A DNA stretch of 64,000 nt from Actinomycetota bacterium (GCA_009698815.1 WLPJ01000006.1:55081-119080); one strand, 5' to 3'. Positions 5,435-64,000 are shown, counted from the stretch's first letter. The notes: a model not told the origin generated them from the sequence alone. Program-made: numbers and translations.

Positions 5435-6535
5435 ATGACCAATTACATAGGAAGCGCAGATTCCCATTCGGGTTGGCGCTCACAGCTACAAAAGATCGGT
5501 GGAAACCTCGCAGGAATGGTGATTCCAAACATTGGAGCATTCATCGCTTGGGGACTTCTAACCGCTCTCTTTATTCCAACAGGGTGGATTCCTAATGAGG
5601 AGTACGCCAAGATGGTTGGACCAATGATCGTTAACTTGTTACCAATTCTTATTGGTCTAACAGGTGGTCGAATGGTTCATGGGCAACGTGGTGCCGTTAT
5701 TGGTGCGGTTGCAACTGTTGGCGTTATCTGCGGTACTGATATCCCAATGTTCCTTGGTGCAATGATTATTGGACCAGCAGCAGCTTGGGTATTGAAGAAG
5801 ATCGATGCAGTTCTAGATCCAAAGGTTCCAGTCGGCTTTGAAATGCTTATTAGCAACTTCAGCCTTGGTATCACAGGTCTTGGAATGGCAATGGTTGGCT
5901 TCAAGGCAATCGGACCGGTTGTAAAGAGCATAAGCACTGTACTCGGAAACGGTATTCAGTCACTTGTTGACAACAATCTGCTTCCTATTGCATCAGTCAT
6001 TATTGAACCTGCCAAGGTTCTCTTTCTCAACAACGCCATTAACCATGGTGTGCTCGGACCACTAGGTGTTACACAAGCAAAGGAAACTGGAAAGTCAGTT
6101 CTATTCATGCTTGAAACAAACCCAGGTCCTGGCCTCGGTGTATTGCTTGCATTCTGGTTGGTTGGACCACGTATCGTGCGCGGTTCAGTCCCTGGCGCAA
6201 TCATCATCCACTTCTTTGGTGGAATTCATGAAATTTATTTCCCTTACATTCTCATGAAGCCACGCTTGATCCTCGCAGCTATTGCTGGTGGAGCAGCTGG
6301 CGTTGCAATGAACGTTCTGCTTGATAACGGTCTAACTGCAACACCATCTCCAGGATCAATCTTCGCTTATATGGTTGTTACTCCTAAGGGTGACACCTTC
6401 AAAGTACTACTTGCGATCGCAGTATCTGCGGCCGTTGCATTTGCAGCTGCTTGGTTCTTGCTAAAGACCGATAGCTCAAATAATGACGATCTCGATTCAG
6501 CAAAATCTCGCAAAGATTCATTGAAGAACGGATAA
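5435..6535 (+). CDS. mtlA: PTS mannitol-family transporter subunit IIC
   Basis: MVIPNIGAFIAWG, PMFLGAMI, GFEMLISNFS, EPAKVLFLNNAINHG, FMLETNPGPG, HFFGGIHEIYFP. Confidence 0.92.
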   Translation: MTNYIGSADSHSGWRSQLQKIGGNLAGMVIPNIGAFIAWGLLTALFIPTGWIPNEEYAKMVGPMIVNLLPILIGLTGGRMVHGQRGAVIGAVATVGVICGTDIPMFLGAMIIGPAAAWVLKKIDAVLDPKVPVGFEMLISNFSLGITGLGMAMVGFKAIGPVVKSISTVLGNGIQSLVDNNLLPIASVIIEPAKVLFLNNAINHGVLGPLGVTQAKETGKSVLFMLETNPGPGLGVLLAFWLVGPRIVRGSVPGAIIIHFFGGIHEIYFPYILMKPRLILAAIAGGAAGVAMNVLLDNGLTATPSPGSIFAYMVVTPKGDTFKVLLAIAVSAAVAFAAAWFLLKTDSSNNDDLDSAKSRKDSLKNG

Positions 6536-51520: not shown

Positions 51521-51542
51521 TGTCAGTTCTCGGTTGTATCTT
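51521..51542 (+). promoter_or_regulatory. PafBC/RecA-NDp-type promoter
   Basis: TGTCAG-N10-TATCTT, ATG 6 nt later. Confidence 0.7.
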
Positions 51543-60893: not shown

Positions 60894-61205
60894 ATGTCAC
60901 AGATTTCAATCATAGGAGATGAAGGCACGCCAGTTCTTTATGCATCGCTGGCTTTAGAAGGCAAACTCTTTTTTGAGTTTGAGTATTACGGCCTTCATGA
61001 AAATGAGGGCGATTACGAATTTAACCACACTGTAGAGCCTGAAGAGTTTCCACAAATTGCCAATAGATTCGGCTTAAACCCCACAGATCCCATCTTGATC
61101 ATTGTTCAACAGATAACAGATATGGGCAAAGGACAAGAATTAGAGCGGGCACTAACTAAGAAGGAGATCAAAAATGAACTATGGACCTGGCTCAATACCC
61201 CTTAA
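60894..61205 (+). CDS. Hypothetical protein (103 aa)
   Basis: GGAGG RBS; acidic ORF; no family recognised. Confidence 0.7.
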   Translation: MSQISIIGDEGTPVLYASLALEGKLFFEFEYYGLHENEGDYEFNHTVEPEEFPQIANRFGLNPTDPILIIVQQITDMGKGQELERALTKKEIKNELWTWLNTP

Positions 61206-62240
61206 TTAGCCCTTGGCAACTCGTGAGCACATTCCAAGCAATGCTTTCGAAACACTTAGATCATTAACTCGTGCCACATCAATCTTTGGCTTAGCCCCAT
61301 AGTCATTGGAGCGTATTGCTTCAATATTGATTCCTTCAATGTTCTCAAAAAATGTAACTAACTCATCAACGAATTGTTCTTTTTTGTAATCAACGAATCT
61401 AGCTTCAACTGTGGCTTTGCCAAAGGTATGGAATACAAGTGGATACCTAAAACCTCTTGCTGTTTTGACACATATGGCGCCAGAGGGAGTTTCAGATTTT
61501 GTGCCGCCCCATTTATGGCCATCGGATTCGAGCAAGGCCATGAGTGATTCGAATTTCGGGAGAGAGGATGGCTCGTTTGAAAGTAACCAAGCAGCAAACT
61601 CATCTTTAGTCCAAGGATTTCTTTGCTCATAGGCATCAACTTGAGGCTTTAGAGCCTCATAACCAAATGTTTGGGGGATCACGATTTCTGTATCACCGGT
61701 CGAATGGCGAGCCAATTCAATCAGAGCAACACGAAAAGTCGCATCAGTTTTCTTGTTTACAAGAATCACCATATCTTTAAGTGGCTCATTAATTTCATCA
61801 ACCGCCAGTAGTAATGTGAACCTTGCACCTTCAAGATTTGTTGTGACTCCTAGCGATAAGGGTCCTTTTGTAGTCTCTACCGAAGTTAGATCTGCGCCAC
61901 CACGATCTTGCCAACGCTGGTGGAACTCTTCAAATGAGAGCTTGCTGATGCTTGCTGCGTAATCAATTATCTGACCAATTATCTTCCTGCGAACCTCAGG
62001 ATTTCTCGCAAGCTTGCATTCAACCAAAGTGATTGAACCATCTTTGGAATTGATGATCACATTATCAATTGGCCCAGAGTCTGTGTTGAATTCTCTACAT
62101 ACAAATGAATCAGAGCTCACACCAGGTAATAACTCTGGGAATTCTGAAATCATCGCCTGCAGTTGATCTTCGCTCGCATATCCTGAATCAGTTGGTGAGA
62201 TCCACGCGCCGTTACCCCTTCGGTAAAGAATTCCACTCAT
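61206..62240 (-). CDS. NucS/DUF91-like PD-(D/E)xK nuclease domain protein
   Basis: EDQLQ...REF...GPID...TLVECKL...RRKIIGQIIDYAA. Confidence 0.78.
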   Translation of the reverse strand: MSGILYRRGNGAWISPTDSGYASEDQLQAMISEFPELLPGVSSDSFVCREFNTDSGPIDNVIINSKDGSITLVECKLARNPEVRRKIIGQIIDYAASISKLSFEEFHQRWQDRGGADLTSVETTKGPLSLGVTTNLEGARFTLLLAVDEINEPLKDMVILVNKKTDATFRVALIELARHSTGDTEIVIPQTFGYEALKPQVDAYEQRNPWTKDEFAAWLLSNEPSSLPKFESLMALLESDGHKWGGTKSETPSGAICVKTARGFRYPLVFHTFGKATVEARFVDYKKEQFVDELVTFFENIEGINIEAIRSNDYGAKPKIDVARVNDLSVSKALLGMCSRVAKG

Positions 62241-62956
62241 AGTCGTGCCAATAACTTCTTAAAATCCGGTTTTCCCAGATTGCCTTCAGTTAGATAGATG
62301 CTTCTTGTGCTTTTAAATTCCACTCTGTTTTTATGGTCAAACAACTCAGGCACGGCAGTGAACCATCCCAACATATTCCTGCTCATAATGATTAACGCAT
62401 CTCGCTTAATCGCCTCACTCACCAGGTTAAAGGAGTAGTGCTGGGTCGGGAATGTGAAGGGAATAGGATGCCAAGACTTTGAATGGTAGGCATGGAAATT
62501 AAGCAGGAATAAACCTCGAGTCACTCTCTCTACTGAAGTCTTTGCCACAAGCTCTCGGACTCTTGGTTTAAACCAAGCACTCTCCATTTCAGGTTTATTG
62601 GGTGAGTCAATTCTTGACCTAAAGGATTCTAAATCTACGTGCCTTAAGTTCCTTGTATTCTGCTCTAGTTTATTTGCGTTCATTCTAAATTTTGGGTTCT
62701 TCTCTTTTTCATTAACTCCCGGATTGGCCATAAGCACAAAGATATTCGCCTTGGGGTTCCCGAGATAAGGATGAGGTTCTAAGTGTTCAGCCAAAAGGTA
62801 ATTCTCTTTATCTTTACTTTCCCTAGAACCCATTCCCTTATTAAACCCCTGAAAATAAGGTAGATCTGTCAGATGAACTTTGGGCTCATTCTTTTGAGGA
62901 TTAAAAGTCAGCCAAGGATTTTCAATCACTCTCATAAGGTAGTGCGCTCGTAACAC
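62237..62956 (-). CDS. Uracil-DNA-glycosylase-superfamily-like protein
   Basis: PHPYLGNPKANIFVLMANPG resembles UDG motif A; NFHAYHS; its stop overlaps the nuclease start. Confidence 0.55.
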   Translation of the reverse strand: MLRAHYLMRVIENPWLTFNPQKNEPKVHLTDLPYFQGFNKGMGSRESKDKENYLLAEHLEPHPYLGNPKANIFVLMANPGVNEKEKNPKFRMNANKLEQNTRNLRHVDLESFRSRIDSPNKPEMESAWFKPRVRELVAKTSVERVTRGLFLLNFHAYHSKSWHPIPFTFPTQHYSFNLVSEAIKRDALIIMSRNMLGWFTAVPELFDHKNRVEFKSTRSIYLTEGNLGKPDFKKLLARL

Positions 62957-63032
62957 CTTGTAAACACTTATTTACGAGATCTCTAACTGTCTCTAATGGC
63001 CAAACGACGTAAGAAAAACTAAGCCTTTCTGT

Positions 63033-63998
63033 TCAAGCCGTTGGAAGGGTGAATCGATAATCAATCGGACTTAGAGAATCTTCATCTGGATTCCAATCCC
63101 ACCAAAACCTTTCGCGACCACCTGAAGTCTTGTATTCATCCCCATCTTTGGTGCAAACAATCTGGTCCACGACATAGAGAAGAGAACGGAATTCTTCACC
63201 TGCAATTTGGGCATACTCAACTTCAGCAGTTGTGACGGCAACCTCTATTCGAGACATAATGCTTGCTTTAACTTCAACTCCGACTACCTCATCTCCCTTA
63301 ACGGCTCTTAAGTCATACCCAAGTCGCTTTTGGGAACTTACGTCCTCAACGGCATAGCCCAACTTCTCTAGATAATTGGTAGCGAGCGCCATTCCTCGTA
63401 ACTCTGTGGCCTTCTTCTTTTTTTCATCAGTTTGTATTCCGTATGAAGATTCAGCTGGTGGTTTTGGACTCGTAGGTTTGTATGTTGCCAACCTTGATGT
63501 AATCGGTGACTTAATGTGCGAAATCTCGGGTGCAATATCCACTCCAAGTTGTTGAACAGCAGTAGGGAATAAATCAACTAACGCCTTAGGCATTTTGCTC
63601 AGATAGGCACCTTGTGCAGGCTGTATGACTTTTTCTTTCGGAATTTGAAATGGGAAGTAGATAGATTTTCCATCGTATTTTTTATCCAAAGCAGACTTGA
63701 TAGTTCGTATCGAGCCCTGCTTATCCTGAATTTCTTTTAACGTAATTGGTTCATCAAGTTCCGTGTAATTGATTAGGTCGATTTTATAGGCAGGGCTAAT
63801 CTCTGACTTCTTTCGGTCTGGCCATCGGATCTCACCAATTTTCGGGAATCCTCTTGCAACCGAGAACGCAACAATCGATTTTGTTGGTTGGTAGTAATGG
63901 AAGACAACATCTCCATCCTCCACGAAAGCGACCAGCTTCTGACCTGCATGAGTACTAATAGGCGCGAGAAGGTTTCTACCGATATCTGTTCTATCCGT
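63033..63998 (-). CDS. EVE/PUA-like reader fused to a DUF3883-type PD-(D/E)xK nuclease, 5'-truncated by the window edge
   Basis: The frame stays open to the edge (TDRTDIGRNLLAP...VEDGDVVFHY); C-terminal EDVS...GYDL...EVKAS. Confidence 0.75.
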   Translation of the reverse strand, partial: TDRTDIGRNLLAPISTHAGQKLVAFVEDGDVVFHYYQPTKSIVAFSVARGFPKIGEIRWPDRKKSEISPAYKIDLINYTELDEPITLKEIQDKQGSIRTIKSALDKKYDGKSIYFPFQIPKEKVIQPAQGAYLSKMPKALVDLFPTAVQQLGVDIAPEISHIKSPITSRLATYKPTSPKPPAESSYGIQTDEKKKKATELRGMALATNYLEKLGYAVEDVSSQKRLGYDLRAVKGDEVVGVEVKASIMSRIEVAVTTAEVEYAQIAGEEFRSLLYVVDQIVCTKDGDEYKTSGGRERFWWDWNPDEDSLSPIDYRFTLPTA

Positions 63999-64000
63999 TG

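Follow-up and report, generated by a model that had tools for sequence, protein, structure and literature searches.

The stretch of DNA studied here (64,000 nt, C19:55081-119080, hereafter the window) belongs to an assembly of 1.35 Mb in 22 contigs with 47% G+C and ends in three long open reading frames (ORFs) on the minus strand. Gene A (63033..>64000) encodes a predicted reader of modified bases fused to a nuclease, gene B (62237..62956) a predicted relative of the anti-phage glycosylase Brig1, and gene C (61206..62240) a predicted stand-alone nuclease. We favor, short of certainty, the reading that these are three separable anti-phage genes in a mosaic defense island and not one three-part machine, based on the occurrence of each gene without the others at 84-95% identity, on breakpoints that coincide with the gene boundaries and on the separate promoters of A and B. 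The same observations leave the proposal of a first-pass annotation, a single trio that reads, excises and cuts modified phage DNA, without support, while its description of three co-oriented genes, the last two overlapping by 4 nt, is correct. The most interesting element is gene B, which belongs to a large unnamed family tied to the Brig glycosylases and carries a natural change (Asn153) at a residue on which Brig1 and Brig3 both depend.

In the mechanism that we propose, the stretch would form the outer edge of a hypervariable defense island in a Planktophila-type (acI, Nanopelagicaceae) genome, with three genes directed against foreign DNA. The product of gene A would read a modified base in its EVE-like pocket and cut with its C-terminal DUF3883 PD-(D/E)xK domain in the manner of type IV restriction enzymes, being transcribed as a leaderless message from a PafBC-type DNA-damage promoter. 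The product of gene B would flip a non-canonical base into an aromatic pocket (W128/F129) and hydrolyze the glycosidic bond with N78, the Asn of motif A, and the abasic sites would block phage replication. Gene C would provide a stand-alone PD-(D/E)xK nuclease of the PDC-S11 kind, co-transcribed with B in this lineage. We infer the biochemical activities, the defense role, the substrate of B and the PafBC control in this scheme, which builds on the observed domain architectures, homologies, conserved catalytic residues, modular distribution and promoter motifs and on environmental RNA contigs across the B/C junction.

Layout, transcription and separability of the three genes

The contig extends 749 nt past the end of the window and then stops. 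The window truncates gene A, and the look beyond position 64000 that had been suggested in the first-pass annotation yields the missing 382 nt: in continued window numbering, the ORF spans 63033..64382 on the minus strand (L001 13033-14382) and encodes 449 aa. Homologues are labelled Nanopelagicaceae. The longest ORF of gene B encodes 239 aa and gene C encodes 344 aa. All three are real genes that are conserved, with 71 (A), 103 (B) and 105 (C) database clusters. The TGA of B and the ATG of C overlap by 4 nt (cgactATGAgtgg, 62237-62240), an ordinary arrangement in the source genome, where 160 of the 1,334 long ORFs (12%) precede an ORF of at least 100 aa with such an overlap.

Among 301 genomes of the family, B is present in ten (3%), C in seven plus two marginal cases, and A in three plus two partial ones; B was found in three of 401 Actinomycetota genomes. 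B and C are adjacent in two of the family genomes, i.e., the source genome (G000) and a genome of a different genus (G089), in which B is 86% and C 92% identical to the window copies and the ATGA overlap is kept. The complete trio occurs in the source genome only. Each gene is also found on its own. B lacks C at 84% (L011), 79%, 71%, 58%, and 55% identity, where it adjoins HNH, GmrSD_C, type I and type III-like restriction genes and once lies among metabolic genes; type II (AlwI) restriction genes are likewise among its neighbors on related contigs. C occurs without B at 93% identity in G097, with a type I hsdR-like ORF immediately before it, and at 70 and 59% on other contigs. Gene A is found without B or C at 90-95% identity, either beside a DUF2075/SLFN-like helicase and a GIY-YIG gene or before an unrelated 180-aa ORF. 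Two JGI contigs carry the trio, with C at 96% identity, but there an AlwI restriction-modification (R-M) system comes next. In nine lake metagenomes from three studies, 90% or more of the words drawn from 61206-63998 are present, and the breakpoints of the metagenome contigs (61201-61205, 62242 and 64379-64439) are gene boundaries.

The promoters divide the locus in a similar way. A motif that we take to be of the RecA-NDp/PafBC type (TGTCGGTTACTCTGAGTAACCT, minus strand, 64389-64410, past the window; L001 14389-14410), lies 6 nt before the ATG of gene A, a position that implies a leaderless, DNA-damage-inducible transcript. In 14.7 kb there are four copies of this motif versus 0.07 expected, and it is found again 6 nt before the orthologue of A in G193 (L039 1753-1774). 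In the source genome, two WYL-domain genes form an adjacent PafB/PafC-like pair. The other motifs of this type in the same island are located at 51521, 53209, and 60649.

Gene B is preceded by a predicted sigma-70-like promoter on the minus strand (62936..62964), composed of TTTACA (62959-62964), a 17-nt spacer and TACCTT (62936-62941), with 6 nt to a GTG at 62929 and thus an apparently leaderless start. Two related contigs (L038, L005) have the -10 element at the same 6-nt spacing from the GTG, and TTTACA with the 17-nt spacer recurs in L005, where gene A is missing; L012 and L038 contain a TTTGCA-like element with a spacing that is different or unmeasured. The true start of B is probably this GTG, giving a protein of 230 aa, because the orthologue in G089 has a stop codon upstream of it and the conserved -35 and -10 elements (window, L005) lie inside the 5' end of the longer ORF. 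No terminator-like site was found between A and B. Two lake metatranscriptomes contain RNA contigs that include B and run across its junction with C, so that these two genes are co-transcribed in this lineage, and at thin coverage no RNA contig links A to B.

Two related contigs (L005 1039-1207, L011 5765-5933) contain a conserved 46-aa gene divergent from and upstream of B, 65% identical between both contexts. A PafBC-type motif precedes its start by 6 nt, and a Zn-ribbon-like protein is encoded next to it in L005. A third contig (L012) has a PafBC-type motif upstream of B (5953-5974) and a homologue of the Zn-ribbon protein (74% identity over 62 aa), with no 46-aa ORF called.

Several of these data weigh against a complete separation of the genes: B and C retain their ATGA overlap in G089 and in metagenome contigs, RNA contigs span their junction, several lakes as well as a second flanking context contain the whole trio, and one lake-metagenome contig (run X11) joins 61201 to 64439, omitting 3,237 nt that are exactly the A-B-C block. 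The competitor that survives best, although we deem it unlikely, is a two-gene system in which B marks phage DNA and C cuts at or near the marked sites, with A as an unrelated neighbor. The marks would be abasic sites or, if Asn153 renders the enzyme dead, a modified base that is flipped and held. Such a system would fit the RNA contigs and the overlap (present in G000, G089 and the contigs L012, L013, and L040) and has a parallel in the brig3 operon, in which brig3 and the helper gene bapA overlap (bioRxiv 10.64898/2026.02.25.707755); an Asn at the position of the essential acid would also suit an effector-dependent binder. However, most homologues of B have no adjacent C, which also holds for members of the Asn153 clade that are 55-84% identical, and C occurs without B at 59-93% identity. 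Moreover, PDC-S11 is listed as a single-gene candidate, 4-nt overlaps follow 12% of the long ORFs in this genome, and BapA is an ASCH-like deglucosylase and no nuclease. We therefore regard B and C as one transcription unit in this lineage, with a functional coupling that is possible.

We give a smaller chance to B not being a defense gene at all, but a housekeeping or repair UDG-like (uracil-DNA glycosylase-like) enzyme or a non-glycosylase protein with the UDG fold, whose location in the island is incidental. The UDG fold is mainly associated with repair, and some homologues are located among metabolic genes (L008-L010, next to acetyltransferase and arginase genes). On the other hand, the genome is already equipped with two canonical UDG-family genes, a presence in 3% of the family genomes and in three of 401 genomes of the phylum is unlike that of a housekeeping gene, the closest characterized relatives are Brig1 and Brig3, and the usual neighbors are restriction and HNH genes. 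The least probable alternative, to which we give hardly any weight, is one obligate system of A, B, and C that reads, excises and cuts modified phage DNA: the co-orientation, the short gaps, the lack of a terminator-like site between A and B, the presence of a 96%-identical trio in lake metagenomes and next to a second set of flanks, and the contig that joins the flanks and omits precisely A-B-C would all suit it, but the trio is restricted to G000 among the 301 family genomes, A at 90-95% identity has quite other neighbors (DUF2075/SLFN-like helicase, GIY-YIG, 180-aa ORF), B-C is found without A, A has a PafBC-type and B its own sigma-70-like promoter, and the breakpoints fall between the genes.

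Gene B and the Brig glycosylases

The AlphaFold2 (AF2) model of B (pLDDT 93.7, pTM 0.90) agrees with the first-pass annotation, which had called the product of 62237-62956 UDG-like. Among the 50 best PDB matches in a Foldseek search, 46 belong to the UDG superfamily (UdgX, family 4/5 UDG, TDG, UNG), and a phage UDG is found among viral models in BFVD (E-value 2.6e-3, probability 0.99). The closest link, however, is to Brig1. Its sequence was taken from the machine-read supplement of Hossain et al. (2024); one Val was restored from the printed DNA, and the numbering was checked at Y121, N145, and E147. The Brig1 motifs PDPWVGD...LGLNPG and NFELYPWHS match two motifs of the B family, and hhalign aligns Brig1 with a profile of 115 B-family sequences with a probability of 94.1% (E-value 1.3e-7, 109 columns). 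Using an alignment of the Brig1 family instead, the probability is 97.1% (E-value 6.7e-11), and two genome-derived Brig1 homologues alone, which are independent of the machine-read text, give 96.8% (E-value 2.8e-10, 137 columns). Among 3,455 sequences, hmmsearch with the B profile retrieves only B and Brig1 (the latter with an E-value of 0.0038). In the 401 Actinomycetota genomes, just two proteins besides B are matched, which are themselves 33-36% identical to Brig1 (E-values 4e-36 and 3e-38). The relation is detected by profile methods alone, as the pairwise BLASTP alignment of Brig1 and B is not significant (E-value 0.077). Both the predicted fold and the profile homology are thus in line with the UDG-like call.

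The canonical UDG families 1, 4, and 5 were considered as the home of B and rejected: with small alignments made from relatives, hhalign aligns the motif-A stretch only, with a probability of at most 21.5%. The B profile matches neither of the two canonical UDG-family genes of the source genome. Judged by these profile comparisons, B is remotely related to Brig1 and further removed from the canonical UDG families, for which the profile alignments do not extend past motif A.

Searches of Pfam, NCBIfam, PHROGs, PADLOC and the PDB sequences, with B as a single sequence and as the 115-sequence profile, gave no informative match, and PDB contains no Brig-like chain detectable by fold or sequence. 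The family lacks a Pfam-A model in the copy searched. It is large, since the profile finds no fewer than 2,235 clusters (50% identity), of which 1,328 score below an E-value of 1e-10, and its members are mostly stand-alone proteins of about 225 aa. One longer member (P0409, 366 aa) carries an N-terminal DUF6508 (E-value 3.7e-29), which is the sole recognizable partner in the ten fusions scanned, apart from a weak match to DUF2207_C; neither domain is informative.

Conservation was counted over 115 representatives of the broad family and over 39 members of the clade of B. Motif A (N78-P79-G80; minus strand, 62717..62725) follows the first β-strand in IFVLMANPG, aligns to N72-P-G of Brig1 and is nearly invariant (N78 in 113, P79 in 115, and G80 in 109 representatives). 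By motif analogy, and not from an aligned Brig3 sequence, N78 would correspond to the Asn of N50-P-S in Brig3, in which N50A abolishes defense (Mejia-Pitta et al., 2026, bioRxiv 10.64898/2026.02.25.707755). W128 (98 of 115) aligns to W122 of Brig1. The second motif, N153-F-H155-A-Y157-H158-S159 at the end of the second β-strand (minus strand, 62480..62500), aligns to E147-L-Y-P-W-H-S of Brig1. Following the published comparison of the Brig1 and Brig3 pockets, W128 and N153 would be equivalent to W100 and D127 of Brig3. B thus has the motif-A Asn and the pocket Trp of the Brig family, and the acid at the end of the second β-strand is absent.

This acid is needed for excision and defense in both characterized enzymes, and defense is lost in Brig1 E147A/Q (PMC11078745) and in Brig3 D127A/N (bioRxiv 10.64898/2026.02.25.707755). 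In the broad family, column 153 is occupied by Glu in 96 representatives (83%), Gln in ten (9%), Asn in six (5%), and Asp in two, and in the clade of B it is Asn in 37 of the 39 members. The change is coupled to another at column 155, which aligns to Y149 of Brig1 and is mostly Phe in the broad family and His in 38 of the 39 clade members.

Some of the evidence on B weighs against an active Brig-like glycosylase. The individual PDB matches are weak (best E-value 0.029, TM-score 0.27-0.36), and neither B nor any of its 115 relatives matches the Pfam UDG family (PF03167). Asn153 is an acid-to-amide change of the same kind as the inactivating substitutions Brig3 D127N and Brig1 E147Q, and by this analogy B could be inactive as a glycosylase. 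Alternatively, B may use an Asn-only chemistry, which is the type found in TDG, MUG, and SMUG, and read a different base. In UNG, uracil is read by Asn204, and N204D makes the enzyme a cytosine glycosylase. By analogy of Asn153 with this residue, the target of B would be a different base from that of Brig1 and Brig3, most likely of the uracil or thymine type.

Because most members of the Asn153 clade stand alone, we find it likelier that B is an active enzyme than that it serves purely as a sensor. It seems improbable that the clade has lost its glycosylase chemistry, like the Brig3 D127N trap, and that B is a base-flipping sensor which recruits or licenses the co-translated C; if this were true, it would be a restriction system with an ex-glycosylase as reader in place of an SRA or EVE domain.

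Genes A and C and their surroundings

The first-pass annotation of A as an EVE-like nuclease is borne out by structure and sequence comparisons. The AF2 model (pLDDT 81) and an alignment of 35 relatives suggest three domains, encoded on the minus strand: an N-terminal helical or winged-helix domain (aa 1-100, entirely past the window end in the full contig ORF), a predicted EVE/PUA-like reader of modified bases (about aa 112-290; 63513..64000, continuing to 64049) and a PD-(D/E)xK nuclease domain of the DUF3883/NOV_C type (about aa 318-449; 63036..63431). In PDB, the middle domain matches VcaM4I, the top hit of A (E-value 1.2e-5), the N-terminal domain of McrB (8.5e-4), the DUF55/EVE protein THYN1 (6.8e-3) and YTH domains, and the C-terminus matches Hjc, EcoRV, and HincII. 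The Pfam family EVE is found in 11 of the 35 relatives (best E-value 8.8e-7) and not in A itself, for which NOV_C/DUF3883 is the sole Pfam match (aa 327-405, E-value 1.9e-8), shared by 32 of the 35 relatives. The reader has six invariant residues (W115, W116, W125, E127, H162, and W187), and the catalytic D357 and E370-V-K372 are nearly invariant at D357, E370, and K372. A thus has both the reader of the PUA superfamily and the fused nuclease, with intact catalytic residues, of the PUA/EVE-nuclease type IV enzymes.

Enzymes that combine a PUA-superfamily domain with DUF3883 (YenY4I) or an EVE-like domain with HNH (the VcaM4I group) are modification-dependent (Lutz et al., 2019, PMC6765204). 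Given this precedent and the homologies of its reader and nuclease, the predicted architecture of A (winged helix, EVE-like, DUF3883) is that of type IV modification-dependent restriction enzymes, as a new domain arrangement of a known kind. The first-pass annotation had also pointed to the lack of a methyltransferase in view; none is encoded in 61206..64749, a weak negative given that the contig stops there, and AlwI-type and MmeI-type R-M genes directly adjoin the same genes on related contigs.

Four related contigs (L044-L047) encode A (90% identity) divergent from an adjoining 620-aa helicase of the DUF2075/SLFN-g3 type, echoing the association of DUF3883 with DUF2075 that was pointed out by Lutz et al. 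(2019, PMC6765204). A distant A-like module of a winged helix-turn-helix and an EVE domain, 28% identical over aa 4-236, is present in another genome (L036, G271:C4, 4574-5895 and 8242-10670), in which it precedes an HNH fragment in place of DUF3883. About 2.3 kb from this module lies a B-like gene (28% identity), which is preceded by a gene for a 571-aa protein that contains VGINPS and possibly carries another UDG-like domain.

For C, the earlier description as NucS-like stands for the nuclease domain and not for the protein as a whole. Its catalytic core, D59 ... E74-C-K76 ... Q90-x3-Y94 (minus strand, 61959..62066), consists of invariant columns in the family alignment, and the family profile aligns only to the C-terminal nuclease domain (residues 126-176) of Pyrococcus abyssi NucS (2vld, E-value 3.3e-4). 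The Pfam family NucS_C is touched by 26 of 45 sampled family members, all under the curated cut-off (E-value 0.04 for C itself). By comparison, PDC-S11, a single-gene phage-defense candidate in PADLOC-DB v2, is matched by all 45 members (best E-value 4.7e-20) and by C with an E-value of 1.1e-9, limited to aa 18-119. This range is the nuclease core, which forms the N-terminus with nothing before it and is followed by a C-terminal region; these roughly 200 aa have no assigned fold, which weakens the assignment.

Two other identities of C were considered and rejected. A housekeeping NucS is at odds with the missing N-terminal domain, the Pfam scores below cut-off and a genus without canonical NucS, and an analogue of BapA with the double β-barrel, ASCH-like nature of that protein. 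Canonical NucS (PF01939) is absent from all 13 genomes of the genus (G000 and 12 others), complete ones included, and present in all eight other sampled families of the class (E-values 1e-36 to 1e-42, and 9e-19 for one match cut by a contig end). The genus may therefore lack the actinobacterial NucS mismatch-repair pathway.

A 103-aa gene on the plus strand (60894-61205) adjoins C and seems to mark a conserved edge of the insertion site of the island. An 85%-identical copy is found near B in L011, and a 103-aa ORF, matched by position and length, lies at the corresponding place in G097 (L037) beside ORFs of 233 and 376 aa. No tRNA genes are present in the final 14.7 kb of the contig.

Significance and comparison with known systems

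Anti-phage DNA glycosylases were recognized only between 2024 and 2026 (Brig1, Brig2, Brig3, Dag). The profile comparisons now tie to Brig1 a family of at least 2,235 clusters, compared with the 42 homologues reported in the Brig1 paper (Hossain et al., 2024, PMC11078745). Column 153 is a candidate specificity switch that can be tested by a single-residue swap. B would also place a Brig-like enzyme in acI Actinobacteria, which are among the most abundant freshwater bacteria. The phages of these bacteria and the modifications of phage DNA are poorly known. The co-transcription of the glycosylase-like B with a stand-alone nuclease and the apparent location of the type IV-like A behind a DNA-damage (PafBC-type) promoter are both testable ideas. 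For annotation, the locus advises caution, as adjacent defense genes in streamlined genomes should not be taken for a single system.

Compared with known systems, B shares with Brig1 the predicted UDG-superfamily fold and profile homology over about 110-137 columns that span both motifs, [P]EP[FYW]xG...LNPG and ExxPYHS, at an identity of just 15-23% or so. Like Brig1 and Brig3, it is a small single-domain protein of defense islands. It differs from them in its host, a streamlined freshwater acI actinobacterium, and in the replacement of their essential acid (E147/D127) by Asn153 together with the coupled Phe-to-His change at position 155. As in brig3-bapA, B overlaps its downstream gene, which encodes a predicted PD-(D/E)xK nuclease here and an ASCH-like deglucosylase in the case of bapA.

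A shares the EVE-like reader with VcaM4I and TspA15I (EVE-like plus HNH) but lacks HNH, and it shares the DUF3883 PD-(D/E)xK domain with YenY4I (PUA superfamily, DUF3427, and DUF3883) but lacks DUF3427. From all three it is set apart by the additional N-terminal winged-helix-like domain and a different domain order. Like other PUA/EVE-nuclease enzymes it has no adjacent methyltransferase, and it differs from them in its apparent PafBC-type DNA-damage promoter and leaderless start. C is of similar length to PDC-S11 (344 versus 358-379 aa). Its core (D..ExK, QxxxY) remotely resembles the C-terminal domain of NucS/EndoMS, whereas the N-terminal domain of NucS is missing, an unrelated stretch of 200 aa follows the nuclease, and the distribution is patchy.

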